From an uncultured Gammaproteobacteria bacterium (GTDB taxonomy: Bacteria > Pseudomonadota > Gammaproteobacteria > DATFLG01), in the NCBI GenBank assembly GCA_963830105.1, contig CAWHLH010000005.1, positions 154,226 through 218,225 of the forward strand: a stretch of 64,000 nt of DNA. Reading direction: 5' to 3'. Made by a program: the position numbers and the translations under genes. The first letter of the stretch is position 1; the number at the start of each line of letters is the position of its first letter. The notes beneath the pieces were generated by a model. The model did not search any database. It was given only the letters and a program-made list of their open reading frames with translations, and was not told the origin of the DNA. Shown in pieces: positions 34,463 through 59,436 of this stretch.

Positions 34463-35080
34463 CTATTGACTGTAGTCCAGCCGTACACGCACCGCTTCTT
34501 CCTGCTCGATGTCCTCCAGGTGGGCCTCCAACTCGTGAAGCGCCTCCCTGATTTCGGGCAGCAGCACGTCCTCCAGGGCGCGTGCCCGGCGCTCAGTGCG
34601 CCGATATTCCTCCAGCAGCCGATGCAGGTTGCCGGTGATGGCGGCCAACGTGGCACTGTGTTCCAGCAGTACGAGGAACCGCGCCCCGCAGTGCCGGGCC
34701 TCGGGGGAGGGGTTCTCGGCTGGAGCCGCCGGGCGCTCGGCCTTGAGCGTCACCTCGGGGCGGACCAGCGCCACGCCCAGAAACGAGCGTCCCTGCAGCC
34801 GCATTTCGCTGTCGTCCAGCGGCGCGGCAGGGTACACGGTGGTGCCTTCCAGTCCGTGGCGGCGCACGGACTGGCGCAGGGCCGCACTGGCCTGCCTGTG
34901 CAGCTCGTTGAAGTGTTCGCGCTGGCGCTCGTAGTCCTGGATCTGGCGAATGATCTCTGCGGCCAGCAGCAGCCGCTTTTCGTCCAGGAAGCGATAGCCC
35001 TCCTGCATGACCTGCTGTTCTTCGCGCAGCTCCAGCAGAGCCGAGTGGGTCGGGGCGTAGCTCGCGCCGGTGTCAGGCAT
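34463..35080 (-). CDS. atpD: V/A-type ATPase subunit D
   Basis: 205-aa coiled-coil protein with the typical subunit D N-terminus (LLELREEQ...GYRFLDEKR); it is the last gene of the V-type operon. Confidence 0.75.
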   Translation of the reverse strand: MPDTGASYAPTHSALLELREEQQVMQEGYRFLDEKRLLLAAEIIRQIQDYERQREHFNELHRQASAALRQSVRRHGLEGTTVYPAAPLDDSEMRLQGRSFLGVALVRPEVTLKAERPAAPAENPSPEARHCGARFLVLLEHSATLAAITGNLHRLLEEYRRTERRARALEDVLLPEIREALHELEAHLEDIEQEEAVRVRLDYSQ

Positions 35081-36464
35081 CGTCCCCGACCTGCGTGATG
35101 TATCTCTGGATCTGCGCGTCGCTCAGCCGGCTCAGCTCGGCCGCCGGCAACAGGGACAGCAGTTTCCAGCCGATGGCCATGCTGTCTTCCAGCGTGCGGG
35201 CCTGTTCCTGGCGCACCAGGGTATCTTCGAAGCGCTCCCCGAATTCGAGGTATCGCCTGTCCACGTCCGTCAGACCCTCGGCCCCCACGACGCTGGCGAG
35301 AATGCGCATCTGCACGGCTCGTGCATAAGCGGCGTACAGTTGATTGGCCAGATCGGGGTGATCCGGATGGGTGTAGTCCTTGCCGGTGCCGTCCTTCATG
35401 AGCCGCGACAAGCTGGGCAGCACCTTGATGGGCGGATAGATGTCGCGCCGGGCAAGCTCGCGGTCCAGCACGATCTGGCCCTCGGTAATGTAGCCGCTCA
35501 GGTCGGGAATCGGATGGGTGATGTCATCGGCCGGCATGGTCAGAATGGGCATCTGGGTCAATGTGCCGGGATGACCTTTGATGCGCCCGGCCCGCTCGTA
35601 GATGCTGGCCAGATCGGAGTACATGTAGCCGGGATAGCCCTTGCGGCTCGGAATTTCGCCGTGGCTGGCGGACACTTCCCGCAGGGCTTCGCAGTAGTTG
35701 GTCAGATCCGTCATGATCAGCAGCACATGACGACCTTCCACAAAAGCCAGATATTCGGCCGCCGTCAGGGCGAAACGCGGTGTCAGCAGGCGCTGCACGC
35801 TGGAGTCGCTGGCCAGGTTCAGGAACAGGGCGGTGCGCGCCAGGGCACCGCTGGTTTCCATGGCGTGGCGGAAGGACTCGGCGGCGTCGTGGGGAATGCC
35901 GATGCCTACGAATACGATGGCGAACGAGTCGCCGTGTTCGCCGCGCAGCCGCGCCTGTTGAGCGATCTGAATGGCCAGGCGGTCGTGGGGCAGGCCGCCG
36001 CCGGAGAAGATGGGTAGTTTCTGGCCGCGCACCAGGCTGTTCATCAAGTCGATGGTGGAAATGCCGGTCTCGATGAAATCGGTGGGCATGGCCCGTTCGG
36101 CCGGATTGATGGCGAGCCCTTCGATGCGCAGACGCTGCTTGGCCGCGATCGGCGGTCCACCGTCGAGTACCCGGCCCACACCGTCGAAGGTGCGCCCCAG
36201 AATGTCCGGGCCCAGGCTGAAGTGGACCGGTTCGCCCTGGAAGCGCACGCGGGTGGAGGCCAGGGCCAAACCGGTGGTCGATTCCAGCACCTCCACGATC
36301 ATGAACTCCTCGTCCAGGGTCGAGATGCGTCCGAGCCGGACACGCCCGTCCGCACCGACCACTTCCACCGATTCGTTCAAGCCCACATCGATGGTGCGGT
36401 GCAGGAACAGCAGGGGCCCCTCGATGCGTGTGGCCGCGTCACTCAGGTACAGGTCAGCCTGCAT
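35073..36464 (-). CDS. atpB: V/A-type ATPase subunit B
   Basis: It is homologous to the A/B-subunit family but has a degenerate P-loop (SGGGLPHDRL), which is typical of the regulatory B subunit. Confidence 0.9.
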   Translation of the reverse strand: MQADLYLSDAATRIEGPLLFLHRTIDVGLNESVEVVGADGRVRLGRISTLDEEFMIVEVLESTTGLALASTRVRFQGEPVHFSLGPDILGRTFDGVGRVLDGGPPIAAKQRLRIEGLAINPAERAMPTDFIETGISTIDLMNSLVRGQKLPIFSGGGLPHDRLAIQIAQQARLRGEHGDSFAIVFVGIGIPHDAAESFRHAMETSGALARTALFLNLASDSSVQRLLTPRFALTAAEYLAFVEGRHVLLIMTDLTNYCEALREVSASHGEIPSRKGYPGYMYSDLASIYERAGRIKGHPGTLTQMPILTMPADDITHPIPDLSGYITEGQIVLDRELARRDIYPPIKVLPSLSRLMKDGTGKDYTHPDHPDLANQLYAAYARAVQMRILASVVGAEGLTDVDRRYLEFGERFEDTLVRQEQARTLEDSMAIGWKLLSLLPAAELSRLSDAQIQRYITQVGDDA

Positions 36465-38208
36465 GGGCGCTTTCTCCTTCCAGCGCTCCAAACGCGCTTT
36501 CCAATGTGGTGGACAGCTGATGGAACTCCTCCAGCTGATTTTCGCCGATCTCCTCGCCCATACGCTGCAGGCGGCGCAGGACGGGCAGATCGGTAATGCG
36601 ATCGAGCGGGACGTTGTTGTCGACAGCGTTCAGCGCCAGGTCGATGAAGCGGGTGATCAGATTCATCATGGCGGTCTGGCGGGCCGGGGAGGCGTAGCGA
36701 TCCAGCTCGGAGAACGAGGATTGGCGCAGAAAGCCGTGATTGATCAGATCGCCGCACAGCAGAATGCATTGCTGACGGGGCGGCAGGGCGTCCTTGCCGA
36801 CGATGCGCGCCATGCGTTCCAGGCGGGTCTGTTCTTCCAGCACCTGCAGCAGTTGGCGGCGCTGCGCCGCCCACTGGGGGTGCCCCTCGCCCTTCCACCA
36901 CCAGGCCAGAGACTCCACGTCCTCGGTGTACGACTGCAGCGGATGCACCGCGGGGTAGAAGCGGGCCTGGGCCCGACCCCTGTCCAGGGCCCAGAAGCTG
37001 CGCACGTAGCGTTTGGTGTGGGTGGTCACCGGCTCGGAAAAGTCGCCGGCCGGGGGGCTGACGGCGCCGATCAGGGTCAACGAACCCTCCTTGCCTCCGA
37101 GGGTGCGCACCCTGGCGGCGCGTTCGTAGAACTCGGCCAGTCGGCTTCCCAGATAAGCGGGATAACCCGCCTCGCCGGGCAGCTCGCCCAGGCGTCCGGA
37201 GACTTCCCGCAGCGCTTCGGCCCAGCGGCTGGTCGAATCGGCCATCAGCGCCACGTGCATGCCCTGATCGCGGAAGTACTCGCCCACCGTGACGCCGGTG
37301 TAGATGCTGGCTTCGCGCGCCGCCACCGGCATGTTGGAGGTGTTGGCGATGATGACCGTGCGCTCCATGAGTGCACGGCCGCTGCGCGGGTCCTGCAGCT
37401 TGGGAAACTCGTGCAGCACGCCGGCCATTTCGTTGCCCCGTTCGCCGCAGCCCACGTAGACGATGATATCGGCGTCGCACCACTTGGCGAGACTCTCCTG
37501 CAGCACGGTCTTGCCGGTGCCGAAACCGCCGGGCAGGGCGGCTTTGCCGCCGCGGGCCACCGGGAACAAGGCGTCCAGGATGCGCTGGCCGGTGAGCATG
37601 GGGCGGTCGGCCGGCAGCCGTTCGGCCACCGGGCGCGGGCTGCGCACGGGCCAGCGTTGGAGCATGGAAATGGGATGGCGGGTGCCGTCGTCGGTCTCCA
37701 GCACGGCGAGGGTCGCGTCTTCACGGTAGTTGCCGGCGTCCACGATCTCCACCACCTTGCCGCGCCGGTCGGGCGGCACCAGGCAGCGCTGTTGCAGACC
37801 CCCGGCAGGCAACAGGCGGCCCAGCACCTGCCCGGGTCCGAGTTTCTCGCCCACCTGCACCCCTGGCTCGAAAGGCAGTTCCACGGGCGCCCGGGCATAC
37901 ATGCCCGGGCGTACGTAGGTCATGCCCAAGCCCGATAGCGGGCGCAGCAGGCCGTCGAAGATGCTGCCGAGCAGCCCCGGCCCGAGCTCCACCGCCAGTG
38001 GGGTCCCGGTTCCCTGTACGGGCACGCCGGGCCGCAGGCCGGTGGTGTCTTCATAGACCTGCACTACGATCTCGTCCTCGCGCAGCCGGATCACTTCGCC
38101 GAGCAGCTGCTGATCGCCGATCAGCACCGCCTCGTTCATGCTGAACGGTCCGCTCGGCCGGGCTCTGAGCACGGGGCCGCTGATCCAGCGGATGACTGCC
38201 TCAGCCAT
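36454..38208 (-). CDS. atpA: V/A-type ATPase catalytic subunit A
   Basis: It has a Walker A motif (GGFGTGKTVLQ) and an N-terminal beta-barrel; 584 aa. Confidence 0.9.
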   Translation of the reverse strand: MAEAVIRWISGPVLRARPSGPFSMNEAVLIGDQQLLGEVIRLREDEIVVQVYEDTTGLRPGVPVQGTGTPLAVELGPGLLGSIFDGLLRPLSGLGMTYVRPGMYARAPVELPFEPGVQVGEKLGPGQVLGRLLPAGGLQQRCLVPPDRRGKVVEIVDAGNYREDATLAVLETDDGTRHPISMLQRWPVRSPRPVAERLPADRPMLTGQRILDALFPVARGGKAALPGGFGTGKTVLQESLAKWCDADIIVYVGCGERGNEMAGVLHEFPKLQDPRSGRALMERTVIIANTSNMPVAAREASIYTGVTVGEYFRDQGMHVALMADSTSRWAEALREVSGRLGELPGEAGYPAYLGSRLAEFYERAARVRTLGGKEGSLTLIGAVSPPAGDFSEPVTTHTKRYVRSFWALDRGRAQARFYPAVHPLQSYTEDVESLAWWWKGEGHPQWAAQRRQLLQVLEEQTRLERMARIVGKDALPPRQQCILLCGDLINHGFLRQSSFSELDRYASPARQTAMMNLITRFIDLALNAVDNNVPLDRITDLPVLRRLQRMGEEIGENQLEEFHQLSTTLESAFGALEGESAHAG

Positions 38209-38265
38209 GGGGGTGCCTTCGCTCGGTCAGCCTGGGTCGGGACAGGGCATTGGGGCGCTTCAGAA

Positions 38266-38892
38266 TCATTGTTGGGCCTCTTCCAGGTGGGCCAGCAGCT
38301 GGGATTCGATTTCCTGCCGGTTCCCGAGCATGCCGGCAATGGTGCCGTCAAGGCAGGCCCCGCCGGCGCAGATGCGCAGTCCGGCGGTTATCTTGTCATC
38401 GGCCTGGAATACGCAGCTCGCGCCGCTGCGGGCTTCGATGCGGGTGCGCCAGTCGTTCAGTTCATCCCAGGCCCAGCCCGGCGGATGGTCGATGCGCCAG
38501 GGTGCTTTCGGCAGGCTCTGCAGGCCGCGCTCGCTGAGGGCGGCCAGCCACTGGCGGCGGCTGTCCGGCGCCTCCCAACGCATCGCCAAGGCGCGCTCCA
38601 GGCGGCGCCACGCTCGGTGCAGGGTGTGGGACACCGCACCGTGGTAGTGCTGGCGGTTGCGGGTTTCCAACTGGGCCCGGGCCGCTTCGATGCGCAGCCG
38701 TGCGTGCAGGCGTTCTTCCTCGATAGCCTTGTGGACCTGCTGACGCGCTTCCCGGTGTGCACTCTTGACGGACTGCCGGGCCTGTTCCCTCGCCTCACGC
38801 CGGATCTGCTCGCAGCGCTGGGCTGCATGCTCCTGCAGCAGTTCCAGCAGCGCATCCAACGGTTCGCGGATATCGGCTTCGTGCCCGTTCAT
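38266..38892 (-). CDS. V/A-type ATPase subunit E
   Basis: 208 aa with a long N-terminal coiled coil and a C-terminal globular part, in the operon position expected for subunit E. Confidence 0.55.
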   Translation of the reverse strand: MNGHEADIREPLDALLELLQEHAAQRCEQIRREAREQARQSVKSAHREARQQVHKAIEEERLHARLRIEAARAQLETRNRQHYHGAVSHTLHRAWRRLERALAMRWEAPDSRRQWLAALSERGLQSLPKAPWRIDHPPGWAWDELNDWRTRIEARSGASCVFQADDKITAGLRICAGGACLDGTIAGMLGNRQEIESQLLAHLEEAQQ

Positions 38893-39188
38893 GCGCCGAC
38901 GCCCAGTTGCCCGCGCAGCCAGGCGGCAAGGTCGGGAGGAGTGGCATGGCCCCCCGCGTCCGGGACCACCACCACCAGCGTCTGGCGGTGGCGCAGTGCA
39001 GCGCGCAACTCCCGCTCGGGCAGGCGCTGGGCGAAATCGGCACTCAGCAGCAGCAGGCCGGTCTGTTCCAGCGCCCAGGCGAGCAGCGCTGCCGGGTCGT
39101 CGGCAGCATCGGCGAGCCGGGTGCGTGCCCCGGCCAGGCGATATCCGGCGGCAGTGAGGGGGTCGCCGATGAACAGTGGGGCCGTCAT
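38889..39188 (-). CDS. V/A-type ATPase subunit F
   Basis: 99 aa, starting MTAPLFIGDPLTAAGYRLAGA, typical of subunit F. Confidence 0.65.
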   Translation of the reverse strand: MTAPLFIGDPLTAAGYRLAGARTRLADAADDPAALLAWALEQTGLLLLSADFAQRLPERELRAALRHRQTLVVVVPDAGGHATPPDLAAWLRGQLGVGA

Positions 39189-39535
39189 CAGCCCAACCGA
39201 TTCAGGATCAGGATGGAGACGATCAACCCGTAGATGGCGATCCCCTCGGCGAGCCCGACCAGAACGATGGTGCGACCCAGCAGTTCGGGTTTCTCCGCCA
39301 GTGCGCCCACGGCGGCGCTACCCACCGCGGCGACGGCATAGCCGGCTCCCAGGGAAGACATGCCGGTGGCCAGAGCCGCAGCGAGATAGCCCCATTGCAG
39401 GACGCCGGGCGCAATGGCCGTGCGCATGGCCTCGTCGGCGCCGAAGGCAGGGGACACGAACAGCATGGCGGTACCGGCCAGGCAGAAGATGCCAGCCATC
39501 ACGGTGAGTGCCAGCGCGACGCGCGGTCTTTTCAT
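39188..39535 (-). CDS. V/A-type ATPase proteolipid subunit K (c)
   Basis: It is a single helical hairpin with a Gly/Ala-rich helix 1 and a conserved carboxylate in helix 2 (GLAEGIAIYGLI). Confidence 0.75.
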   Translation of the reverse strand: MKRPRVALALTVMAGIFCLAGTAMLFVSPAFGADEAMRTAIAPGVLQWGYLAAALATGMSSLGAGYAVAAVGSAAVGALAEKPELLGRTIVLVGLAEGIAIYGLIVSILILNRLG

Positions 39536-41379
39536 GTTGGGCTCCTTGGTTCGCGGTCAGTTTCGTAGCAGGGCGCCGGCAAGGGCTGGAAGGGACGGCC
39601 TTCGCCGTGCAGGAAGCGGATGAAGAATTCGAACAGAATGAGGCGGGTGGTCTGGATGGAGACCACCAGGCCCTCCAGGGCGATGATGGCGATGTTCCCC
39701 AGGATGTACACCAGCACGCCGCCCACCATGCCCCCGGCCACCTGGGCGAGGCCGCCGACGGCTTCGGAAAGACCGGCGTGGGCCAATGCGAACGCGCCCA
39801 CACGGGCGAATGAAAGCGTGTTCACGGCCAGTTGGAAAAGGTGTTCCACCAGTTCCCCCAGGGCGATGCCGATACGCGCGCCGGGGTTGCCGGTGTGCAG
39901 CCGATAGGCGCCGTACAGATACCAGAGCAGCGCGGCAGCGGCCACCAGGGCGGCATAGGCGGAGAACAGGCTGGCGAGCAGCCCCAGGTACAGCGGGATC
40001 TTGGGTGCTTCCAGATACCACCATTGGCGCGCGGTGCCCCGCCAATGGGCTTGCAGTCCATTGAGCAGCATACCCGCCACCAGCAGCACCACGCCGCCTG
40101 CCAGGGGGAATGCCAGTATGGGAATCGGATGAGCCAGAGGATGCAGCCAAAGAGCAGGGACGATGTCTTCGCGGGCGAACACGCTGCCATAAAGCACCCC
40201 GAATACCATTGCGCTGGCTCCAGCGACGACCAGCAGGCGCATGACCGCAAACCTGCGCTGAAGCATGAGTCCGGCTGCCACCAGGACCAGGCCCTGGCCC
40301 ACGTCGCCGAACATGTAGCCGAACAGCAGCGGCGCCACCAGTGCCAGCAACTGGCTGGGATCCGTTTCGTAGCCGGCGGGCACCCCCAGCAGGCGGGGAA
40401 ACAGCTCGAAGGCGCGTGCCCATGGGGGGTTGCGCAACACCATGGGCGGCATCGCATCGCCAGGCGTGTCCACCAGGTGCACGAGGGCGCGTGCCCCGCT
40501 GCTGTGGATGGCCTGCTGCAGCCCCTCCCCGTCAGGGTCGCTGGTCCAGCCTCGCACCCAGGCGAGGTTCTCGCTGGCAGGAAAGTAGCGTACCTGGGCC
40601 AGGAACCACTCCAGGCGCGCCACATCCCCCAGCACTTCGTGCAGATGGTAGTCGTCCTGGGAGCGCACGATCGCCGCGCGCAATTGGGTGAGCTCGGTGT
40701 CCAATGCCTGCAGCCGGCTTTCCAGGCTGCGCAGCGCCGCCGGCCTATGGCCCGTCAGCCAGGGCGGGACCGGCAGTTGGCGGCCCTGGACAGCGCTCAT
40801 TTCCTGCTCGATCTGGGGCAGCGCCGCCGTCAGTCCCACCGCCAGCAGGAAGAGGTGGTGCGGGCCCTCGATCCACCATGGAAGCACATAGGGCGGCATT
40901 GCCGGCGGCTTTGCGTTGGGGGGTAGAAGATAAGCGGCATAGCCAATGGTCGGGCCGGCCGCGTGCAACGCGCCGATGTCCAGCTGCTCGCCCGGCATGC
41001 TGGCAAACAGGTCGCGCAGGCGTTGAAGGTCGGTGTGCTCGGCCTGGGCCTGTTCGAGACGTTCGATGGTCGGGCCCATGGCCTGCTCCCAGGTGCCGAG
41101 CTGCTTGAGAGCCCGGTCGATCGTGCGGGCAGGACGTCCGGTGACCGCCGAGGGTCTGATGGGCTCCCGTGGCCAGTAGGGGTGATAGCGCCGTTCCAGC
41201 GCGTGGTAGTGACCCAGGCGCGCTTCCAGGTCGGGGCTGGTCTCACTGGTGCCGGTCAGCGCTACGGCGCTCTCCAGTTGTACGCTGCCGGTGCGGGCGA
41301 GGGCCTCGAGGGCAACGGTGAGATCATCCCGGGCCAGCAGGGCCTCGAACCAGCGTGCCGGAAACGGTCGCAGAGCCAT
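39532..41379 (-). CDS. V/A-type ATPase subunit I (a)
   Basis: The real start is MALRPFPARWFEALL (615 aa). It has an N-terminal soluble domain and a C-terminal multi-TM domain with a conserved Arg. Confidence 0.8.
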   Translation of the reverse strand: MALRPFPARWFEALLARDDLTVALEALARTGSVQLESAVALTGTSETSPDLEARLGHYHALERRYHPYWPREPIRPSAVTGRPARTIDRALKQLGTWEQAMGPTIERLEQAQAEHTDLQRLRDLFASMPGEQLDIGALHAAGPTIGYAAYLLPPNAKPPAMPPYVLPWWIEGPHHLFLLAVGLTAALPQIEQEMSAVQGRQLPVPPWLTGHRPAALRSLESRLQALDTELTQLRAAIVRSQDDYHLHEVLGDVARLEWFLAQVRYFPASENLAWVRGWTSDPDGEGLQQAIHSSGARALVHLVDTPGDAMPPMVLRNPPWARAFELFPRLLGVPAGYETDPSQLLALVAPLLFGYMFGDVGQGLVLVAAGLMLQRRFAVMRLLVVAGASAMVFGVLYGSVFAREDIVPALWLHPLAHPIPILAFPLAGGVVLLVAGMLLNGLQAHWRGTARQWWYLEAPKIPLYLGLLASLFSAYAALVAAAALLWYLYGAYRLHTGNPGARIGIALGELVEHLFQLAVNTLSFARVGAFALAHAGLSEAVGGLAQVAGGMVGGVLVYILGNIAIIALEGLVVSIQTTRLILFEFFIRFLHGEGRPFQPLPAPCYETDREPRSPT

Positions 41380-42146
41380 CAGGCGGCCTCCATGCCCTTG
41401 AACAGCACGCGCTCTGCAATCTCGCCCCGCAGGCGTTCCAGATCCAGCGCGACCAAGCCAAGATGGGCGAACGTCGCGGCCGGCTGTTGGCGATAGCGCC
41501 TGAAGAATCGCAACAGGACAGTGCCGAGGGACTCCCGCGCCGCCCGGCCGCTGTCGCCCGGGGCGACAGCCATCACATCGATATGGGTCTGGACGCGCTG
41601 CAACAGCAGGTTGAGCACATGCCCATGGGTTCCGGCGCCAGCCGGCCACAGCGTGCGCCAGTGTGTCACCCAGCCGGCGCGTAACGTCTGCCCGCGGCTC
41701 CAGGCGCCGATCATGGGAAACCAGCGTGACCGCGCAAGGGCCTCGCGGCGCGCCGTGCGGCTGTCGTGGACGATGTCCTGCAGGCGGGGGTCGGCGCGGA
41801 TCCATACCGGCAGTTGTTCGGCGGTCAGCAGTTCACGCAGCAGCGGAAGCATGGGCAGCTCCGCCGCCCATGCCACCGCAGGACGCCATGGGGCGGGTTG
41901 CCAACGGGCGGTCTGCAGAACGTAATCGTGAAAATGACGCCGCAGCTGGGCCGCCATTTCGTGGACGGGAACCTGGTGGCCCAGGCCCAGCACCCAGGGG
42001 CGCAGTTCGGTGGTGCGGGCGGTCTGCAGGTAGTGGGATGGGTCGCGGATGGTGGCCAGGCGCCGCCAGTCCGCTTCGCTGGGCCGGCGCCCATGGCGGG
42101 CCTGCAGGCGGGCCTGCGCATATGCGAAGCGGTCCGACGGAATCAT
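41379..42146 (-). CDS. V/A-type ATPase subunit C (d)-like
   Basis: 255 aa, starting MIPSDRFAYAQARLQARHG. Its stop and start overlap subunit I. It is shorter than canonical subunit d, so the assignment is by operon position. Confidence 0.5.
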   Translation of the reverse strand: MIPSDRFAYAQARLQARHGRRPSEADWRRLATIRDPSHYLQTARTTELRPWVLGLGHQVPVHEMAAQLRRHFHDYVLQTARWQPAPWRPAVAWAAELPMLPLLRELLTAEQLPVWIRADPRLQDIVHDSRTARREALARSRWFPMIGAWSRGQTLRAGWVTHWRTLWPAGAGTHGHVLNLLLQRVQTHIDVMAVAPGDSGRAARESLGTVLLRFFRRYRQQPAATFAHLGLVALDLERLRGEIAERVLFKGMEAA

Positions 42147-42505
42147 TTGGGTGGTTCCCGGTCGATTCTGGCGCCCCCGGTCAGTTCGGCCGCCAAGCGT
42201 TCTGCGACGGCGTCCAGTTCCTCGTCCGGCAGTGCAACCCGCCGGCTGTCGCTCGCCAGGATGCCGTGTTGCTCGACCACCAACTGATCGATGGCCTTGT
42301 GTACGGCGCGGGTGCAGCGCAGATGGGTGCGGGTCATGCGGGCGTCGGCGCGCGCGTGTATGTCGGCCGCCTTGACGCGTGCGGCATCCAGCAGGAACTC
42401 CGCCTCGTGCCGGCAGGCTTCGATCGCCTGCTGAACGTCCCGTTCGGCCAGCAGCACGGCCGTGATGGCGGCATCCGGACTGCGGCTGTCCACGGGGCGG
42501 CTCAT
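42143..42505 (-). CDS. Small V-ATPase-associated protein (G/H-like), first gene of the operon
   Basis: 120-aa helical protein that overlaps the next gene by 4 nt. The assignment is by position only. Confidence 0.4.
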   Translation of the reverse strand: MSRPVDSRSPDAAITAVLLAERDVQQAIEACRHEAEFLLDAARVKAADIHARADARMTRTHLRCTRAVHKAIDQLVVEQHGILASDSRRVALPDEELDAVAERLAAELTGGARIDREPPK

Positions 42506-42606
42506 TGATCTGATGTCCTGGGTTGCGGATTCCGTGAGCGCGGCACAAGCCGGGGCGCTATGGCTGCCACGGTTCAGTTGCCATCATAGTCAGGGTGCTT
42601 CCGGCC

Positions 42607-42643
42607 AAACATGACCTGAAGCAATATTTTGTCCTTGGGGACC
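42607..42643 (-). promoter_or_regulatory. Candidate sigma70 promoter for the V-type ATPase operon
   Basis: On the minus strand: TTGACAgggtccccaaggacaaaATATTG in an AT-richer patch upstream of the first operon gene. Confidence 0.25.
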
Positions 42644-42991
42644 CTGTCAACTTCAGGATAAAGGGTATGGCGCGCGAGGTCGAGATCGTCCAAAGGGAGG
42701 GGCCGGATGGCTATCTGCGCGCGTCTCCCGGGCCCCGGCAGCCGCCGCCGGCGCGTCCGGTTGTTCTGCGCGCGGGGCGATTCAGCGGGGACCGACGAGG
42801 TGCGCGGACTGGCCGGCGAGGGGAAGGACATCCGAGCCTATGGGCCGCGGTGTGTCGGGACCTGGGGGAGGGCCCGCGGCGGCGGCATGACGGCCAGAGC
42901 CCGGTCGCTGTCCTGCAGTGGCTGGCACCGCACCGGGACTGCGTGGGTGGTCGGGCGGGGTCGTTCCACGATTCGTGCCGCGGCAGCGCGA

Positions 42992-43861
42992 TCAGTGCAC
43001 GATATCCACTTTCAACCATACGCGGTCGCGGCTCTCGCCCCGCTGCTCTGTGCGGTAGACCGTACCCGCGTCCTGCTGGTCCGTGGCGCCGGCGGCCCCG
43101 CCCAGATCCAGCCAGTGCCCGACCTTGCCGGAGACGGTGGTGGTCAACTGCTGGCTGGTTATCATGCCGCCGCCCTCGGGTGCGAGAGCTTGCCGCTGGG
43201 GGCTGATGTCAACGGTTGCCGTGTCCCCCTTGATACGCGCCCGTACGTAGAAACCCGAACCGATGTCCTTGTAGGCCAGGGTGTCCTGAACCACCGGCTG
43301 GCCGTTCACCCAGGACACCGATTGCTGCGGTACGGGGAATGAAAGGCCGAAACGAATGAGGGCGTCGCGGCCTTCGACCACCTGCAGTTGCTGAACATCG
43401 TTGTGGGTGTCCCGGGATTCGGTGCTGAGCACGCGGCTATGGACTTCACCGTCGGCGCCCCGGTGGACGACGTTCAGGCCGGGCCCTACTCCCCGGTCGG
43501 TACTGTAGACGCGGGCGCGGCCGGTCCCTGCGCCACCGCCGGCATCGAGGCCCAACGCCTTCATTTGGGAACGGCTTGCCCGCCGTACGGTGATTCGCAA
43601 TCGCTGGGGGGCCTTGTCGAGCTGGTGAACCACCGCTTCCAGTTCCTGCATCCGCGCCGGGGCGGCGCGGACGATGAGCTGATAACCGGTGCCGGTCATG
43701 GCTTCGTCCTGGGCGAGCAGCGGTCGCAGGATGGGGATGATCTCGCTCGCGCTGCGATGGTGGAGCTCGATGACGTGCAGCGTCGTGTCCGCCCGGCCCG
43801 GCATTGCCAGCACGCATGACAGCAGCATCAGAGGCAGGATCAACAGGTGTCGCATCGTCAT
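42992..43861 (-). CDS. Mini secretin-like exported protein (secretin_N-like domain plus a short secretin-like C-terminus)
   Basis: It has a signal peptide (MTMRHLLILPLMLLSCVLAMPGRA), a secretin N-domain pattern (TLHVIELHHRSASEIIPILRPLL...YQLIVRAAPARMQELEAVVHQLD), and a C-terminus ...TVSGKVGHWLDLGG...RVWLKVDIVH that resembles the secretin core end. It is only about 290 aa. Confidence 0.4.
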   Translation of the reverse strand: MTMRHLLILPLMLLSCVLAMPGRADTTLHVIELHHRSASEIIPILRPLLAQDEAMTGTGYQLIVRAAPARMQELEAVVHQLDKAPQRLRITVRRASRSQMKALGLDAGGGAGTGRARVYSTDRGVGPGLNVVHRGADGEVHSRVLSTESRDTHNDVQQLQVVEGRDALIRFGLSFPVPQQSVSWVNGQPVVQDTLAYKDIGSGFYVRARIKGDTATVDISPQRQALAPEGGGMITSQQLTTTVSGKVGHWLDLGGAAGATDQQDAGTVYRTEQRGESRDRVWLKVDIVH

Positions 43862-43872
43862 GACCGGTCCAG

Positions 43873-44430
43873 TCACAGGTGCAGCCGCCGCAGTTCGGGA
43901 TCCGGAACGCTGCGCTCCCAGACCTCGTTGAACCATTGGGTCAGCTGCCTGGCGTGCAGCCCCGCCCGGAAGCGGGCGGAGCCCTCATAGCGCGTTGCCA
44001 GTGTGCGATGCAGCGTGCCCACTGCATCGGCAATGAGAAAGGCTTCGGCAAAGTCCCGTACATCATCGTGGGCCTTGCGAATCTGAATAAAGGTGCTCAG
44101 GTTGCGTGCCAAGTCCACCAGTCGGTGGCCGTCCTTCACCGCGCGTCGCGAGTCCTTCACCAGCACGCGCACGCGGCTGTGGCGGCTGCGCAGGGCCAGT
44201 GCCCGAATGGCGTCCAGCAAAGGCGGGTGGTCGTAGACCGAGGGTTCCAGGTCGAAGGTGAAGATATCCAGTGTCCGGCGGGCCTGACCGACGAGTGAGA
44301 GGGCGGCCGCCCGGTTGTCGGCCCAGCTTTCCAATGGCAGCGTCTGGCTGGATTCCCCCAGTACACAGTGGCTGAACCCGTTGCCGCTCACGGGGTCGTT
44401 CGCTTGTTGGCCGTCGTGGTCGACCATCAT
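43873..44430 (-). CDS. Hypothetical protein
   Basis: 185 aa, starting MMVDHDGQQ. It sits between the GNAT gene and the mini-secretin gene with 4-nt and 12-nt spacing. Confidence 0.4.
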   Translation of the reverse strand: MMVDHDGQQANDPVSGNGFSHCVLGESSQTLPLESWADNRAAALSLVGQARRTLDIFTFDLEPSVYDHPPLLDAIRALALRSRHSRVRVLVKDSRRAVKDGHRLVDLARNLSTFIQIRKAHDDVRDFAEAFLIADAVGTLHRTLATRYEGSARFRAGLHARQLTQWFNEVWERSVPDPELRRLHL

Positions 44431-44975
44431 GGACGTTGTCCGTTGGCACTCACTTTCGCCTCTGGTACCACGGTCGTCAGAACCATTCGGCGGTGTGGGA
44501 TGCCTGCCTCCCGGAACGGTTCCCCCTTCGCCTGGAACCCCCGGTGGGCGTAGAACTCGACGGTCTGCAACTGGGCATCGAGCCACACGGGCGCCAGCTG
44601 GTGTTGTCTGGCGAGTGCGGTCAAGGTGCGAAGCAGCAAACCGCCGACGCCTCGGCCCCTCCAGCCGGACAGCACCGCCAGCCGGCCGATCTGGCCGTCG
44701 GGTTTGAGTCGACCGGTGCCGATGGCTTGGCCGGTCCCGTCCTGTGCCAGCACGTGCAGGCACTGGCTGTCGACCGCCTCGTTCCATTCCAGCTCTGCGG
44801 GGATGTTCTGCTCGCGCACGAAAACGGCCTCGCGTACGGCTCGTAGCAGGCCGCGGTCCTGGGGCAGGCTCCAGTCCGCCAGTCGGGCATGGAAATGGCT
44901 CGTGGTGGTCACGGCGGATGTCTCGCACGCGGCGCAAGCCCCATCGTGGTCGGCTGCGCCTGACTTGCCTGCCAT
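44427..44975 (-). CDS. GNAT family N-acetyltransferase
   Basis: It has the acetyl-CoA binding block LAVLSGWRGRGVGGLLL. Confidence 0.7.
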   Translation of the reverse strand: MAGKSGAADHDGACAACETSAVTTTSHFHARLADWSLPQDRGLLRAVREAVFVREQNIPAELEWNEAVDSQCLHVLAQDGTGQAIGTGRLKPDGQIGRLAVLSGWRGRGVGGLLLRTLTALARQHQLAPVWLDAQLQTVEFYAHRGFQAKGEPFREAGIPHRRMVLTTVVPEAKVSANGQRP

Positions 44976-45139: not shown

Positions 45140-49301
<4,162 letters not shown>

Positions 49302-49411: not shown

Positions 49412-50044
49412 TCAAGGGGGGGTGGCTTCGCTCAGCAACTGCTCCGCGGCTGTCAGCAGGGTCGAGCGGCCGAACAGCAGGTTCCAGCGACCGCCGCCGG
49501 ACTGGCGCCAGAGCACGGCGGAGCGGATGCCGGCGAGCAGCAACGCACGGATCAGCCGGGCCCGGTCCGGGTCTTCCAGGAAGGTCGGCTCGCCGTGCAC
49601 CACGATCCTCGGGGTGAGCGTGCTGATGGTACTGCGGTACAGGTCTGCCAGGGCAGCGACAACTGTTCCGTGGGTGCGGGAAAAATACCCGACCTGGACA
49701 CTGATCCGTTCGATGCCGGTGCGCAATGCCTCCAGCAGGTCTCGGCGCCTGCGCAAGCGTCGTTCCAGATGGAGCAGGGTGACAGCGTAGCGGGTGATTT
49801 CCAGTCCGGCCGGCGAGCGTGGATTGCCCAACTGGGTCCGCAGCGTTTCCAGGCCGGTGCGCACCCCGGCGATCCCGCCGTAGATTTCCGCCGTGTCGGC
49901 AGCATCGAGGTAGAACAGGGTGCCGATGGTGGTTTCCACGGCCTGTGGGTCGGCCTGTCCCTGGCGAGCCACCTGCTGTACCAGCGCAGTAGCCTGGAAG
50001 ACACCCGCGAGGGCCAGGCAGCGGTCGCTGAGCGAGCGGCTCAT
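49412..50044 (-). CDS. hflD: High frequency lysogenization protein HflD
   Basis: Its N-terminus LALAGVFQATALVQQVARQG matches the E. coli HflD pattern LALAGICQSARLVQQLAHQG. About 210 aa. Confidence 0.75.
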   Translation of the reverse strand: MSRSLSDRCLALAGVFQATALVQQVARQGQADPQAVETTIGTLFYLDAADTAEIYGGIAGVRTGLETLRTQLGNPRSPAGLEITRYAVTLLHLERRLRRRRDLLEALRTGIERISVQVGYFSRTHGTVVAALADLYRSTISTLTPRIVVHGEPTFLEDPDRARLIRALLLAGIRSAVLWRQSGGGRWNLLFGRSTLLTAAEQLLSEATPP

Positions 50045-50072
50045 GGCCGGGGATCCCGGCGCGAATCGCCGT

Positions 50073-51164
50073 TCATTGCGCCCATGGTTCACCTTCGGCT
50101 GCCTCTATGGTCGCTCCGCCCAGGCATTCGTCGCCGTCGTAGAACACCACGGCCTGACCGGGGGTCACCGCCCGTTGGGGCTGGTCGAATTCGACCCGGC
50201 AGCGCTCGCCGGGGAGCCCGGAGACGGTGCAGGGCTGCTCCGCCTGCCGGTAGCGCACCTTTGCGCCACAGCGCAGCGGCATGCGCGGAGGCCGGCCGGC
50301 AATCCAACTCGGAGCGGCGGCGAGCAGCGTACGCCGGTACAGCGCGGCATGGTCGTGACCCTGGGCGACAAGCAGCACATTGCGCTGCAGATCCTTGCCT
50401 GCCACATACCAGGGCTCGCCTGCGTGTTGCGCCTGTCCGCCGATACCGAGACCCTGGCGCTGGCCCTGTGTGTAGAAGATCAGGCCATGGTGGGTTCCCA
50501 ACGTCTCGCCTTCCACGCTCCTTATCTCTCCGGGCTGCGCCGGCAGGTAGCGACCCAGAAAGTCGCGAAACTTGCGTTCGCCGATGAAGCAGATGCCTGT
50601 GCTGTCCTTCTTGGCGTGGTTGGGAAATCCCGCATCCGCCGCGATGCGCCGCACCTCGGGCTTGTGCAGATGGCCGATGGGAAACAGGCTGCGGGACAAC
50701 TGGTCCTGGGCCAGGGAGTGAAGGAAATAGGTCTGATCCTTGTCGGGGTCGGTTCCCTTCAGCAACCGCACGACGCCGTTCGCGTGAAGGCGAGCGTAGT
50801 GGCCGGTGGCGATGCGGTCGGCGCCCAAGTCCAACGCGTGGTCGAGAAAGGCGCGGAACTTGATCTCCTTGTTGCACATGACGTCCGGGTTTGGCGTGCG
50901 CCCGGCCTGGTATTCGTCCAGGAAGTATCTGAATACGCGGTCCCAGTATTGGGCTGAGAAACTGACCTTGTGCAGTGCGATACCCAGGCATTCGCACACG
51001 GCGCGGGCGTCGGCCAGGTCCTGCTCGGCGGGACAGTGACCCTCTTCGTCGTCTTCATCCCAGTTCTTCATGAACAGGCCGGCGACATCATGGCCCTGCT
51101 CCAGCAGAAGGAGCGCGGCAACGGCCGAATCCACGCCGCCGGAAAGGCCTACCACCACGCGCAT
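50073..51164 (-). CDS. mnmA: tRNA-specific 2-thiouridylase MnmA
   Basis: It has the PP-loop [18 protein letters not shown] and the catalytic Cys region. 363 aa. Confidence 0.9.
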
Positions 51165-51344
51165 GATCTTCCTTTCCAGGCAGGGCGCAGCCCGGGACCA
51201 TGATCGGAAGGCATCCACAAAGGGGGAAGTCCGGTCATGGTTGTACAGGCACGTGCGCTGAGCGCGGCGGGCATTCGGCCGCGCGCGGACATGGAGGCCT
51301 CGCATGACCGGAGCGGGTCCGGGCGCTGCAGTCGGAATCGTAGG

Positions 51345-51800
51345 TCACTCACCTTGCTCCATATCCACAAGCATCGCCAACGGATAGCGGCGGCCGGCAA
51401 TGTAGTCGTCGATCGAGCGCAGCACCAGCGGGCTGCGCAGGTGCGCCGTGCGGGCCTCGATCTGATCGCGACTCAGCCAGACCGTACGTATGATTTCGGT
51501 ATCCAGCGGCTGGTCGGGCTGATGGTCTTCGCAGCGCCCGGAGAACGTGATGCGCAAATAGGTCCTGCCGTTTTCCGGTACCCGCCAGCGGTAGATGCCG
51601 ACAATCGCTTCCGGTACGAAGCCCCAGGCGGTCTCCTCGCGGGCCTCGCGAATGACCGCCGCTGTCAGGCCTTCCCCTTCATCGAGGTGGCCGGCCGGTT
51701 GGTTGAGAACCCGCTTGCCGTCGATGCGTTCCTCGACGAGCAGGAAACGACCGTCGCGCTGTACAACGGCGGCGACCGTGACGTGGGGCTTCCAGGTCAT
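51345..51800 (-). CDS. nudJ: NUDIX hydrolase NudJ-like
   Basis: MTWKPHVTVAAVV...NQPAGHLDEGEGLTAAVIREAREETAW (Nudix box) ...LRSPLV aligns with E. coli NudJ. The position after mnmA matches E. coli. Confidence 0.75.
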   Translation of the reverse strand: MTWKPHVTVAAVVQRDGRFLLVEERIDGKRVLNQPAGHLDEGEGLTAAVIREAREETAWGFVPEAIVGIYRWRVPENGRTYLRITFSGRCEDHQPDQPLDTEIIRTVWLSRDQIEARTAHLRSPLVLRSIDDYIAGRRYPLAMLVDMEQGE

Positions 51801-51953
51801 CGGGCCCACGGCGGACACCGGCGTGGCGCGCCACGAGGCAGTGCCCTGCGAATTGGGCGGTGCTCGCTCAAAAGCAGCCTATCCATTTGATATTAATGAC
51901 ATAGTATTCTGTCAATGAGTAACTTTACAGGAGCCGGGGCGGCCGGTCCACGC

Positions 51954-51982
51954 TTGACAAACGTGGACCAGCCAGTGATAAC
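51954..51982 (+). promoter_or_regulatory. Candidate sigma70 promoter (TTGACA-N17-GATAAC) for the exported-protein gene
   Basis: ttgaca (51954-51959), a 17-nt spacer, then gataac. A ggaggagg RBS lies before the ATG at 52143. Confidence 0.35.
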
Positions 51983-52142
51983 TAGCCCGTGGCCTAGCAT
52001 CGCCACCGGCGGTGTGCGTGGCGTTACGTTGCGCGCGGCCAGCCCATGCAGGGCACTATAACTAAAACTACCCGTCGGGCCGCTCGTGCTCGTGGGGCCA
52101 AGAACCAGAACTAGAAACGTCAATAATGGAGGAGGAGTTGAC

Positions 52143-53042
52143 ATGGTGAAATCCCTCATACGCGCCGCCGTTGTGTCCGGTCTGACGCTGGTGGCCGCTA
52201 ACGGCGCCCAGGCAGCGAATCAGGACCTCAAGCCGTTTATCCTCGGCTACGAGACCACCGGTAACATGACCAAGGTGGCCGATCAGGTCAAAGACAAGCT
52301 CAAGTCCGCCGGCTTCGACATCGCCGGTTCCTACACGCCGTACCAGGGCGCGATGGTTATTGCAGTCACCAACCAGCAGCTGAAGGAAGGCGCCGCCAAG
52401 TCGAAATTCGGCGGTTACGGGGCTGCCCAGCGCGTGTCCCTGACCGAGGTCAACGGCCAGATCCAGGTGTCGTATACCAATCCCGTGTACATGGAGGACG
52501 CCTACCGCATGGATGCCAACTATGCGCCCGTGCTCAAGGAACTCAAGACGGCATTGGGTGACAAGGAGGCCTACGGGCCGAAGGAAGGACTGACCGCAAG
52601 CAAGCTGCGCAAGTACCACTACATGTTCGGTATGGAGTACTTCACCGATCCCAGCCACCTGGCCGAGTACGACAACTACAAGGACGCGGTGGCGGCTGTG
52701 GAGAAGGGGCTGGCCGAGGGCAAGGGCGGCGCCCATAAGGTTTACCGCATCGACATCCCGGGCAAGGACCAGACCGTATTCGGTGTTGCCTTGACCAAGG
52801 GCTGCAGCGGTGACAAGTACATCATGAACAACATCGACTTCAAGCCCATTCGTTCCACACCCCATCTGCCCTACGAGGTGCTGGTGAACGGCAAGAATGT
52901 CTATGCCCTGTACGCGCGGTTCCGGATTGCGATCAACTTCCCTGACCTGGCCATGATGGGTCACCACAGCTTCGTCAACATCATGTGCGCTCCCGGCGCC
53001 ATTGAGAAGTCCCTGACCGAAGCGGCGGGAGGCAAGATCTGA
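52143..53042 (+). CDS. Exported protein of unknown function (possibly a tandem DUF302-like fold)
   Basis: It has a signal peptide ([25 protein letters not shown]), a strong RBS, and a rho-independent terminator immediately downstream. Confidence 0.55.
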
Positions 53043-53072
53043 TATCACACGGTTCGGCACCACGATCTTACA

Positions 53073-53100
53073 GCCCCCGCTCGAAGCGGGGGTTTTTTTT
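53073..53100 (+). terminator. Rho-independent terminator
   Basis: The stem cccccgc / tcgaa loop / gcggggg is followed by T8. Confidence 0.7.
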
Positions 53101-53181
53101 GGCTCGTTGACGTTAGCCGTGGCAGCTGCCGGATGGTACAATCCGGTCCCCGCTTTTGTGCATTGTCATGGGTACGCTTCA

Positions 53182-54438
53182 ATGGCCTATCAGCATATCG
53201 TCATTCCCGAACAGGGTGAGCGCATTATCGTGAATCCGGACCAGTCCCTTGCGGTTCCGGACCGGCCCATCATTCCCTGCATCGAGGGAGACGGCATCGG
53301 GGTGGATATCACACCGGTCATGCAGGCGGTGGTCGACGCGGCTGTCGAGAAGGCCTACACAGGCGCGCGGCGCATCGCCTGGATGGAAATCTACGCGGGC
53401 GAGAAAGCCAACCGCCTCTACGGTGAGAACGCCTGGCTGCCGGCCGAGACGCTGGAGGCCATCCGCGAGTACTCGGTCGCCATCAAGGGGCCGTTGACCA
53501 CGCCGGTGGGCGGTGGGATCCGTTCGCTGAACGTGGCCCTGCGGCAGGAACTGGACCTTTACGTCTGTCTGCGGCCGGTGCGCTACTACACAGGTACTCC
53601 CAGTCCGCTGAAGGAACCGGAGAAGACCGATATGGTGATCTTCCGGGAAAATTCCGAAGATATCTACGCCGGCATCGAATGGGAGGCCGGCACACCGGAA
53701 GCGCGTAAGGTCATCGACTTTCTGCAGACCGAGATGGGGGTCAGGAAAATCCGATTCCCGCAAAGCTCCGGCATCGGCATCAAACCCGTCTCGCGGGACG
53801 GAACCCGCCGCCTGGTGCGCAAGGCGATTCAGTACGCGATCGATCAGGATCGCGAGTCTGTAACGCTGGTGCACAAGGGCAACATCATGAAGTTCACTGA
53901 AGGGGCCTTCAAGAATTGGGGCTATGAGCTTGCCAAGGAGGAGTTCGGGGCGGTGGAACTCGATGGCGGGCCCTGGTGCACCTTCAAGAATCCCAACACG
54001 GGGCGCGACATCATTGTCAAGGACGTCATCGCCGACGCCTTTCTGCAGCAGATTCTGTTGCGTCCGGCCGAGTACAGCGTGATCGCAACGCTCAACCTGA
54101 ACGGCGATTACATTTCAGATGCACTTGCGGCTCAGGTGGGCGGTATCGGCATGGCGCCTGGTGCCAATCTATCGGACACCGTCGGTCTCTTCGAGGCGAC
54201 CCACGGAACCGCGCCCAAGTACGCCGGCAAGGATCAGGTGAACCCCAGTTCCCTGGTGCTGTCGGCGGAAATGATGCTCCGCCACCTGGGTTGGCAGGAA
54301 GCGGCCGACCTGATTGTGAAGGGCGTGAGCGGGGCGGTCGCAAGCAAAACCGTCACCTACGATCTTGCTCGTCTGATGGACGGTGCCACCAAAGTAAGCT
54401 GTTCCGGATTCGGTGAGGCGGTCGTAGCCCATATGTAG
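53182..54438 (+). CDS. icd: Isocitrate dehydrogenase (NADP)
   Basis: It is nearly colinear with E. coli Icd ([78 protein letters not shown]). Confidence 0.95.
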
Positions 54439-54489
54439 CCCGTGCGCCGAGCCTGAACGGGCGGGCGCCGCCGGCGACAGAACGGCGCG

Positions 54490-54527
54490 GAACCGGGCGG
54501 CGCGGCGGGCTGCGGCGCCGCCCGGTT
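54490..54527. terminator. Bidirectional GC-rich hairpin terminator between the convergent icd and cspD
   Basis: gaaccgggcggcgc ... gcgccgcccggttc is a perfect 13-bp stem. Confidence 0.55.
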
Positions 54528-54530
54528 CGC

Positions 54531-54740
54531 TCAAACGCCGTCGTTGCGGATCTTGGCAGCTTGCAGGCCTTTCGGGCCCTGCATGACATCGAAGGATACT
54601 TTCTGACCTTCCTTCAGAGTCTTGTATCCTTCCATCTCGATTGACGAGAAATGGGCAAACACATCTTCGCCCCCCTCGTCAGGCGCTATGAAGCCGTAGC
54701 CTTTCGCGTTGCTGAACCACTTAACGGTACCGGTTGCCAT
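54531..54740 (-). CDS. cspD: Cold-shock domain protein (CspD-like)
   Basis: It has the [15 protein letters not shown] and [11 protein letters not shown] motifs. Its position divergent from clpS-clpA matches E. coli. Confidence 0.85.
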
Positions 54741-55105
54741 CCTCACATCCCCTCGTATTACCGGCGGACGTTCGAGCGTCCGTCTTGTTTATGCTGGTCG
54801 TCGTGAAGCTTAGCTTACCGGGAGGATTGAACGAGCCGTTCCGCCCGTGGCCACGTGAGCCAATTGCAGACTCCACTTGCACACTCTATCTACAGTTGAG
54901 TAAAATAGTCAAGTATTACCCGGCTTTGGACCCGCTCCGGCAGGTGTCGACGCCGGCCTTTCCCGCCGATCCGCCCGCCCCGCTTTGTACTCGTTGCGCG
55001 CCTTGGTGTTCTATGGTACGAGTAATTCATGAGTGGCGCGATCATGCGGTCGGTAACATTCCGCACGGGTAGCGAGCCGGCGGACTTCGCGACAGACTAT
55101 TTGCT

Positions 55106-55426
55106 ATGGGCAGCGAGCGGAAGCTTGGCAATACAGACGATCTTGTGGTCGAGGAGGCGAGACCGAAGGTCAAACGCCCGCCTCTGTACAAAGTGATTCT
55201 ACTGAATGACGATTACACTCCGATGGAGTTCGTGGTTCAGGTTCTGGAGACGTTCTTCGGCATGGGACGCGAGAAGGCCACGCAGATCATGCTTCATGTG
55301 CACACGCGAGGAAAAGGCGTATGCGGGGTTTTCACCAGGGAAGTTGCCGAGACAAAAGTGGCACAGGTCAATGAATATTCGCGCCGGCATCAGCACCCGC
55401 TGTTATGCACCATGGAGGAGGCGTAG
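55106..55426 (+). CDS. clpS: ATP-dependent Clp protease adaptor ClpS
   Basis: [24 protein letters not shown] is the ClpS core. Confidence 0.9.
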
Positions 55427-59434: not shown

Positions 59435-59436
59435 GC

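Follow-up and report, generated by a model that had tools for sequence, protein, structure and literature searches.

A chromosomal mini-secretin that keeps its gates but lacks the amphipathic helical loop, encoded behind a GNAT/DUF7931 pair in a gammaproteobacterium

The 64,000-nucleotide (nt) stretch of contig CAWHLH010000005.1 from an uncultured gammaproteobacterium, referred to here as the window, carries on its minus strand a string of three co-directional open reading frames (ORFs). The first encodes a GNAT-family N-acetyltransferase of 182 amino acids (aa; 44427-44975), recognised by Acetyltransf_10 (PF13673; 59.2 bits, cutoff 23.6, E 5e-16). The second encodes a 185-aa protein (43873-44430) of the DUF7931 family (PF25559), and the third the precursor of a 289-aa protein (42992-43861, stop codon included), matched by Secretin_N, Secretin and pIV profiles and named here the mini-secretin. 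An initial annotation of this DNA had placed the three ORFs at these positions with the GNAT gene in front, and the ORF check agrees with it, as it does on the 4-nt overlap of the GNAT stop with the DUF7931 start codon (ATGA). Its gap of 12 nt and its 290 aa for the last gene have to be corrected to a spacer of 11 nt between the DUF7931 stop and the mini-secretin start and to 289 aa when counting starts at the first in-frame ATG that follows the upstream stop. The 185-aa protein, for which that annotation had recognised no family, matches the DUF7931 profile with 167.3 bits (cutoff 27, E 2.4e-49) over aa 38-183, corresponding to profile positions 4-149 of 149.

The mini-secretin begins with a segment, MTMRHLLILPLMLLSCVLAMPGRA followed by D, which reads as a signal peptide (aa 1-23; 43793-43861, minus strand). 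It is probably of the signal-peptidase-I type, cleaved after GRA, and a hydrophobic N-terminal segment is present in all aligned homologues. A lipoprotein, considered for the motif LLSC at residues 13-16, was rejected, as the cysteine is not conserved and no more than 20 of 267 family members carry a lipobox-like motif. The ring-building Secretin_N domain (PF03958) occupies aa 27-86 (43604-43783, minus strand), and its Pfam profile matches aa 29-86 with 33.2 bits against a cutoff of 28.2. The remaining part, aa 87-289 (42995-43603, minus strand), represents a reduced secretin core, delimited by hhalign comparison with M13 pIV and by conservation in individual regions. The Pfam Secretin profile (PF00263) reaches 23.6 bits with the window protein (E 4e-5), just below its cutoff of 27.5, and all 38 aligned relatives match both Secretin and Secretin_N, the best PF00263 E-value being 4.9e-12.

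Alignment of these 38 relatives was used to build a family profile. In a search of the PDB it matched only secretins, with E-values from 1e-7 to 1e-10, among them Pseudomonas aeruginosa GspD (6e-10) and further GspD, PilQ and BfpB chains. The longest PDB alignment was obtained with f1 pIV (2.4e-9), where query positions 54-265 correspond to pIV 142-374. Aligned by hhalign to full-length M13 pIV (probability 95.7%, E 1e-8), the family extends over mini-secretin residues 29-285, equivalent to 133-418 of the pIV precursor, a span that takes in N3 and the complete core, its last strand included. The inovirus pIV profile phrog_1012 was also matched, by the window protein (3.6e-12) and by three relatives (1e-18 to 1e-21). 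Each of these matches is one contiguous stretch of N3 plus core, covering profile positions 104-361 of 403 and leaving the N0 and the C-terminal amphipathic helical loop (AHL) parts unmatched.

The AlphaFold2 (AF2) monomer model of the mini-secretin has an overall predicted confidence (pLDDT) of 67, with a confident N domain (83-96), and its 27 best Foldseek matches in the PDB are all secretins. The search of viral structures gave no better match than bacterial secretins, and viral and bacterial Foldseek E-values were similar. Profiles and predicted fold together identify the 289-aa protein as a genuine homologue of secretins.

The mini-secretin can be compared with f1 pIV part by part. In pIV, N3 is followed by outer strand 1, the beta-lip, outer strand 2, the inner barrel with its gates, and outer strands 3-4, and Gate 1 is hinged at G267 and G297 (PMC8563730). 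The core of the mini-secretin comprises a shortened outer strand 1, a lip-equivalent, an inner barrel with Gate 1 and Gate 2, the block TTVSGxxGxWxxLGG, an AHL-equivalent and a last strand. According to the hhalign mapping, the N3-equivalent (aa 27-86), pre-gate strand, Gate 1, inner barrel, Gate 2 and terminal strand are retained. Equivalence of aa 27-86 to N3 follows from the position directly before the core and from the alignment to pIV N3. The Gate-1 equivalent (aa 172-203; 43253-43348, minus strand) has the same length as in pIV and is flanked by conserved glycines, G172 on one side and G201/G203 on the other. G172 aligns to pIV G267 and G201 to G297, with G203 two residues beyond; neither G172 nor G203 varies among the 38 aligned sequences. 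The Gate-2 region aligns to pIV without loss.

Other parts are missing. The mini-secretin has no counterpart of N0 and the linker (pIV residues 1-107), of domains N1 and N2 of the secretins of type II secretion systems (T2SS), or of the S domain. Compared with pIV, a deletion of 5 residues in outer strand 1 takes out the position of Glu185, and an 11-residue deletion falls exactly at GVPFLSKIPLI, the AHL. The AHL motif (VPxLxxIPxLGxLF, searched as a regular expression) was found in none of 267 family members, although the same expression finds pIV.

Sequence conservation, calculated as entropy per region on 265 aligned members, follows the same division. The most conserved region is the TTVSG..GG block (1.15 bits), followed by the inner barrel (1.47 bits) and N3 (1.73 bits). 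The lip-equivalent, aa 101-150, is second most variable (2.72 bits, 23% gaps), and some members are devoid of 22-30 residues there, while the AHL-equivalent, aa 256-278, is the least conserved region of all (3.01 bits). [quoted passage not shown] Conservation in the mini-secretin family is the reverse of that in canonical secretins.

These results bear on several claims of the initial annotation. An exported protein with an N-terminus similar to the secretin N domain is corroborated by the signal-peptide-like start and by PF03958, although of the two hidden Markov models proposed there for verification only PF03958 exceeded its cutoff. The structural comparison that was also proposed returned secretins. 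The resemblance noticed at the C-terminus is indeed secretin-related, but it is not limited to the end of the protein and includes N3 and essentially the whole core. The statement that the protein is far too short for a channel proved misleading, since the core of about 203 aa compares with about 230 aa in pIV and both gate regions are kept.

The family is large. In an exhaustive profile search among representatives of clusters at 50% identity, 7,664 were recovered at E<=1e-3, and the stricter limit of E<=1e-30 left 1,286. Of the top 150, nearly all measure 256-312 aa and match in full length; four exceptions of 339-372 aa match in their C-terminal part only. At least 575 matching stretches were detected in GTDB species-representative genomes with search patterns drawn from a 16-sequence subset, and 80 loci were fetched; scanning the genome collection with the single mini-secretin protein returned no relatives. 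Carriers belong to Beta- and Gammaproteobacteria, and cultured ones include Sulfuriflexus mobilis, Thioalkalivibrio denitrificans, Azospira sp. I13 and Methyloversatilis discipulorum. Members are annotated at source as "hypothetical protein", "secretin N-terminal domain-containing protein", or by a generic GspD COG name. Our literature search found no paper on the mini-secretin family and nothing functional on DUF7931, on PA2629-PA2633, or on orphan, small, truncated or stand-alone secretins. The family is present in public databases yet uncharacterised, and it is vertically inherited.

Regarding the two upstream genes, the GNAT protein also matches Acetyltransf_1 (PF00583; 46.5 bits, cutoff 20.7, E 5e-12), and no NCBIfam equivalog was reached, the best, PRK10314, remaining far under its cutoff. 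The AF2 model of the DUF7931 protein (pLDDT 92.5) shows an alpha/beta fold of the phospholipase D (PLD) superfamily. TrmBL2 is its top Foldseek match (2e-7), followed by TrmB and FAM83 and then by NucT, PLD3, Zucchini, PLD1/2 and PssA, with probability 1.00 for NucT, PLD3, Zucchini, PLD2 and PssA. At the sequence level, PLDc_2 gives an E-value of 0.045 with the 185-aa protein, and the DUF7931 profile found no matches in the PDB. In the region equivalent to the HKD motif (FLIAD135xxG138), the aspartate and the glycine are conserved in an alignment of 38 DUF7931 sequences. The His (-7) and Lys (-5) positions of HxKx4D are non-conserved or alanine in the same alignment, and for this reason DUF7931 is regarded as a pseudo-PLD. 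Further conserved positions are GHRL (101-104), R118, R142, F167 and W171, together with the C-terminal ELRRLHL. This terminus, ELRRLHL-COOH (43873-43896), is almost invariant in the 38 proteins, which are otherwise 35-70% identical, and suggests a recognition or docking motif.

A signal peptide is present in neither GNAT nor DUF7931. In about 10 of 113 DUF7931 homologues, GNAT and DUF7931 make up one polypeptide chain of 300-324 aa, with domains in the order of the genes in the window. Because they lack signal peptides and are fused in some genomes, the two proteins are considered a cytoplasmic pair. Two fusions of 318-323 aa (L081:6001-6972 and L084:1414-2370) were found in loci without a mini-secretin. 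In several genomes the GNAT/DUF7931 module is preceded by a gene for a RoxA-like ribosomal oxygenase (JmjC_2), whose stop codon overlaps the next start codon.

Gene order was tabulated for 25 DUF7931 loci. The most frequent arrangement is purB-DUF7931-mini-secretin (13 loci), followed by purB-JmjC-GNAT-DUF7931-mini-secretin (4). GNAT-DUF7931-mini-secretin and purB-JmjC-DUF7931-mini-secretin are represented by 2 loci each, purB-GNAT-DUF7931-mini-secretin and JmjC-GNAT-DUF7931-mini-secretin by one each, and the GNAT::DUF7931 fusion without mini-secretin accounts for 2. GNAT is directly upstream of, or fused to, DUF7931 in 10 of the 25 loci and absent in 15. In the least biased sample, loci fetched through DUF7931, the mini-secretin follows DUF7931 in 5 of 8, and in gamma-type loci fetched through the mini-secretin the two always stand side by side. 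In gamma-type loci purB is found upstream of DUF7931 in 18 of 20 cases. The gammaproteobacterial core of the string is DUF7931 followed by the mini-secretin, with GNAT as a facultative component. A 1,290-aa ORF located downstream in several gamma-type loci was considered as a partner and dismissed: by sequence it is PurL, and its counterpart in L087 has FGAR-AT/PurL domains.

Searching with the family HMM, no DUF7931 was detected within 5 kb in 60 of 80 loci fetched through the mini-secretin. These are beta-type loci, from Gallionella, Burkholderiales, Rhodocyclales and Nitrosomonadales. In 29 of them, a gene for an NlpC/P60 lipoprotein endopeptidase is immediately upstream, divergent and less than 400 nt away, and in 27 a gene for an MltB-type lytic transglycosylase lies upstream on the same strand, itself preceded by trxB. 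In loci of the Burkholderiales type an Fe3+ ABC transporter operon is placed in between. Examples of the peptidoglycan-hydrolase neighbourhood come from L004-L078 (L007:5193-5696, minus strand; L026:5938-6900), and the window does not contain it. Gene content of these loci indicates that in Betaproteobacteria the mini-secretin works without GNAT or DUF7931, and that the two are not its obligatory partners. The conservation of the trio, raised in the initial annotation, has two sides: the complete trio recurs in 8 of 23 fetched loci with DUF7931 and the mini-secretin, in addition to the window, but most mini-secretin loci do without it.

In the window, the string is embedded in housekeeping genes. 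Genes upstream on the same strand are purB, acnA, hflD (DUF489), mnmA and a NUDIX gene, of which purB (adenylosuccinate lyase; 45140-46537, minus strand; Pfam Lyase_1 and ASL_C) serves as the synteny anchor. About 440 nt downstream of the mini-secretin, an operon for a V/A-type ATPase follows on the minus strand (34463-42505; recognised subunits I, A, B and D). Its surroundings are GC-rich and gammaproteobacterial, and the closest relative, L001, has the same arrangement behind the mini-secretin. A sigma-70-like promoter match precedes this operon at 42650-42623. Folding of the 436-nt spacer after the mini-secretin (42560-42995) is no better than that of shuffled sequences (z = -0.46), and the Rfam scan of the window found no family. 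None of the approximately 40 predicted ORFs scanned with Pfam across the whole window belongs to a T2SS, a type III secretion system (T3SS) or a type IV pilus (T4P), in line with the initial annotation, which had seen no pilus or T2SS genes nearby. GNAT, DUF7931 and the mini-secretin match no PADLOC model of defence systems.

Housekeeping genes continue over 49412-63359, with mnmA, hflD, acnA and purB on one side and icd, clpA, ate, a FemAB-like gene and trxB on the other. We take the block trxB, ate, clpA, icd, mnmA, hflD and purB to correspond to P. aeruginosa PA2616-PA2629, and by this synteny PA2633 would be a putative orthologue of the mini-secretin. No Pseudomonas protein appeared among the best 120 of a gamma-biased profile search. 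PA2633 (Q9I0K5) is named "Secretin_N domain-containing protein" and was detected in a surface-shaving proteome (PMC8959810), and the PAO1 small RNA SrbA (PA2633.1) is annotated after it (PMC5542712, PMC5870498).

Elsewhere in the window, a [NiFe] hydrogenase is encoded on the plus strand (21988-27049), with genes for a cytochrome-b-like protein (Nitrate_red_gam) and an HdrD-like CCG/Fe-S protein between those for the small and large subunits. This corresponds to the hynS-isp1-isp2-hynL layout of purple sulfur bacteria. Hydrogenase maturation genes hypF, hypD and hypB-like are located at 15738-20218 and a second hydrogenase-like ORF at 9839-11332. Between the hydrogenase cluster and the ATPase operon, a Lon-like protease of LonB/LonC type is encoded on the plus strand (27339-29783; AAA_32, LonC_helical and Lon_C). 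Near the beginning of the window, LexA (815-1444, minus strand) adjoins a DEAD-box helicase with the MrfA Zn-binding domain (1474-3915), followed by an RNase_H_2-family protein (3902-5125). The latter two genes resemble a MrfA/MrfB-type DNA-repair pair under SOS control.

Considering all the above, we regard it as reasonably probable that the locus combines a cytoplasmic GNAT/DUF7931 pair with a motor-less, self-assembling minimal secretin ring. Each subunit of the ring would contribute one ring-building domain of N3 type and a compact core with both gate loops and their hinge glycines. Domains N0-N2, the S domain and the AHL have been lost in the family as a whole, and the constraint on the beta-lip is relaxed. 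Subunits made of N3 and core would assemble by themselves into a gated, homo-oligomeric ring with a double barrel, located at the outer membrane or beneath it. Like other secretins, this ring would probably have 12-15 subunits, and no motor of T2SS, T3SS, T4P or phage origin would drive it. Engineered PulD without N0-N2 reportedly still multimerises. N3 is required for building of the secretin multimer (PMC8134430). Since Secretin_N/N3 and the core are the multimer-building part, a ring is to be expected. The AF2 model is mediocre and of a monomer only, so that we infer both ring formation and location.

In secretins, N0-N2 provide coupling to inner-membrane platforms, and the S domain docks the pilotin. 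With no N0 and no platform genes nearby, coupling to an inner-membrane motor is not expected in the mini-secretin. Both AHL and S domain are absent and the lip is unconstrained, and the ring would therefore be attached to the outer membrane peripherally or inserted by another route. In Gammaproteobacteria, the mini-secretin would be co-transcribed at the tail of a (roxA)-(GNAT)-DUF7931 string, in a linkage that is conserved yet dispensable. In this string GNAT and DUF7931 would act as an acetyl- or acyltransferase of the cytoplasm with a non-catalytic partner of PLD fold, probably a ligand- or substrate-binding subunit.

Several observations weigh against this interpretation. The window protein's own Secretin score is under the gathering threshold, and the AF2 monomer falls below pLDDT 50 at aa 106-153 and 256-276. 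Some members faintly retain GLLxS/T, the latter half of the AHL-like segment, making some membrane contact possible. Genes for a canonical partner machine could lie in another part of the genome, beyond the window. Finally, DUF7931 and the mini-secretin genes are tightly spaced, as in an operon, with 4-nt overlaps in L087, L010, L017 and L068; this could mean that a cytoplasmic protein and an exported one are truly tied in function, which the minimal-ring interpretation leaves unexplained.

Such a tie is the essence of an alternative in which GNAT, DUF7931 and the mini-secretin constitute a single unit of three genes dedicated to the envelope; the cytoplasmic pair might, for instance, produce or alter a substance that passes out through the secretin-like ring or regulates it. 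The co-directional genes with their 4-nt overlap and 11-nt gap speak in its favour, as do the adjacency of DUF7931 and the mini-secretin in gamma-type loci fetched through the latter, sometimes with overlapping stop and start codons, and the recurrence of the trio in L001, L003, L018, L024, L058, L082 (S. mobilis), L085 and L086 (T. denitrificans) and also in L088, whose GNAT has an additional DUF3565 domain. However, GNAT is missing in most tabulated DUF7931 loci, both examined fusion loci and L089 have no mini-secretin, the 60 beta-type loci lack DUF7931 within 5 kb, and neither GNAT nor DUF7931 has an export signal. As purB, purL and acnA are housekeeping neighbours, linkage may be in part inherited synteny. 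We find a single module unlikely, and of the uncharacterised envelope module proposed in the initial annotation there remains an uncharacterised 289-aa protein, not a module of three genes. [quoted passage not shown] Strong conservation of the hinge glycines and of the inner barrel agrees with a pore, and the length of the lip-equivalent is close to the 36-residue lip of phage secretins (PMC8563730). On the other hand, the AHL motif is absent from all 267 members, the lip-equivalent is highly variable, gapped and shortened in some of them, and there is no S domain, no lipobox and no pilotin gene nearby, which leaves the pore as a possible but doubtful explanation.

As to the origin of the gene, descent from filamentous-phage pIV is conceivable since pIV is the best profile match and the compact architecture is common to both. 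The family would then be an anciently domesticated pIV that lost N0, which contacts pI/pXI, and the AHL after capture by the host. Among single models, phrog_1012 is the best and the only one giving a contiguous match of N3 plus core; the longest PDB alignment is with pIV; and a short lip, a missing S domain and a single N domain beside the core are pIV-like (PMC8563730). Yet in none of 89 loci does an inovirus gene adjoin the mini-secretin, which has core housekeeping genes beside it. The higher pIV score may result from comparing a full-length profile with the split domain models of Pfam, and Foldseek E-values do not separate viral from bacterial secretins. Domestication is accordingly given little credit here. 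Even less can be said for a decaying, functionless remnant of a full-length T2SS or T4P secretin. Its short length, the loss of N0-N2, S domain and AHL, and the subthreshold Secretin score would fit decay, but 1,286 clusters at 50% identity are of uniform length, the signal peptide is intact, invariant residues extend over N3, the gates and the last strand, and the chromosomal position is conserved across Beta- and Gammaproteobacteria. This family-wide conservation effectively refutes the remnant, which we consider extremely improbable.

Returning to the motor-less minimal ring, the peptidoglycan-hydrolase neighbours in Betaproteobacteria hint at a role in the envelope or cell wall. We tentatively propose, as a rather speculative extension, that the motor-less, AHL-less ring, a core gene product of Beta- and Gammaproteobacteria, represents a functional class of secretin of its own, an envelope structure tied to cell-wall remodelling, not to export of proteins or pili. 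It might reside in the periplasm or beneath the outer membrane. In Betaproteobacteria its gene is paired divergently with that for NlpC/P60 and adjoins that for MltB, and in Gammaproteobacteria its expression might be coupled to the cytoplasmic GNAT/pseudo-PLD module. P. aeruginosa PA2633 would then probably be a member.

To our knowledge, all characterised secretins serve larger machines as their gate in the outer membrane, whether T2SS, T3SS, type IV pili or filamentous-phage export. The mini-secretin family keeps the ring domain and the gates and has discarded the N0 coupling domain and the AHL, the presumed driver of membrane insertion. If confirmed, this would represent a stand-alone use of the secretin fold and a natural experiment that separates the parts required for assembly from those required for insertion into the membrane. 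It would also place a conserved hypothetical gene of many environmental, and probably clinical, proteobacteria in a structural class. GNAT-DUF7931 fusions, in turn, offer a first functional handle on DUF7931.

Comparison with known systems puts these features in perspective. DUF7931 resembles the C-terminal domain of TrmB/TrmBL2 and the DUF1669 of FAM83 in being a single PLD-fold domain of about 150 aa without the HxK residues (Foldseek E-values 2e-7 to 2e-6, TM-scores about 0.55-0.62). It differs in showing no sequence similarity to them in the profile search against the PDB, in standing alone or fused to GNAT instead of to a winged-helix DNA-binding domain, and in its own motifs GHRL and ELRRLHL. 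With GspD/PulD/XcpQ, PilQ and InvG the mini-secretin shares Secretin_N and Secretin domains, gate motifs and the GG block, and GspD, PilQ and InvG proteins make up all its top structural matches. Unlike them, it has 289 aa as opposed to 550-750 aa and is devoid of N0, N1, N2, the S domain, the cap gate and the AHL. The GspD model TIGR02517 matches only aa 62-91 (23.8 bits, cutoff 351), no gsp, pil or sct genes were detected among the approximately 40 scanned ORFs of the window, and related loci yielded no gsp genes.

The closest counterpart in architecture is pIV of f1/M13 (PDB 7OFH; phrog_1012). Both have a single N3 joined directly to a compact core, the same order of outer strand, lip, inner barrel, Gate 1, Gate 2 and last strands, conserved Gate-1 hinge glycines, a short lip and no S domain, and they can be aligned end to end. 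In contrast to pIV, the mini-secretin has no N0 and linker and would thus make no contact with an inner-membrane assembly complex; it bears the deletions of 11 residues in the AHL and 5 residues in outer strand 1; and it is chromosomal, in a housekeeping context where phage genes were not found nearby. A natural truncation that leaves a fraction of the bacterial secretin, with loss of the S domain, is also known from the mitochondrial GspD of the eukaryotic T2SS-derived system (PMC8134430), but in the opposite sense: the mini-secretin preserves N3 and the whole core and loses the AHL.

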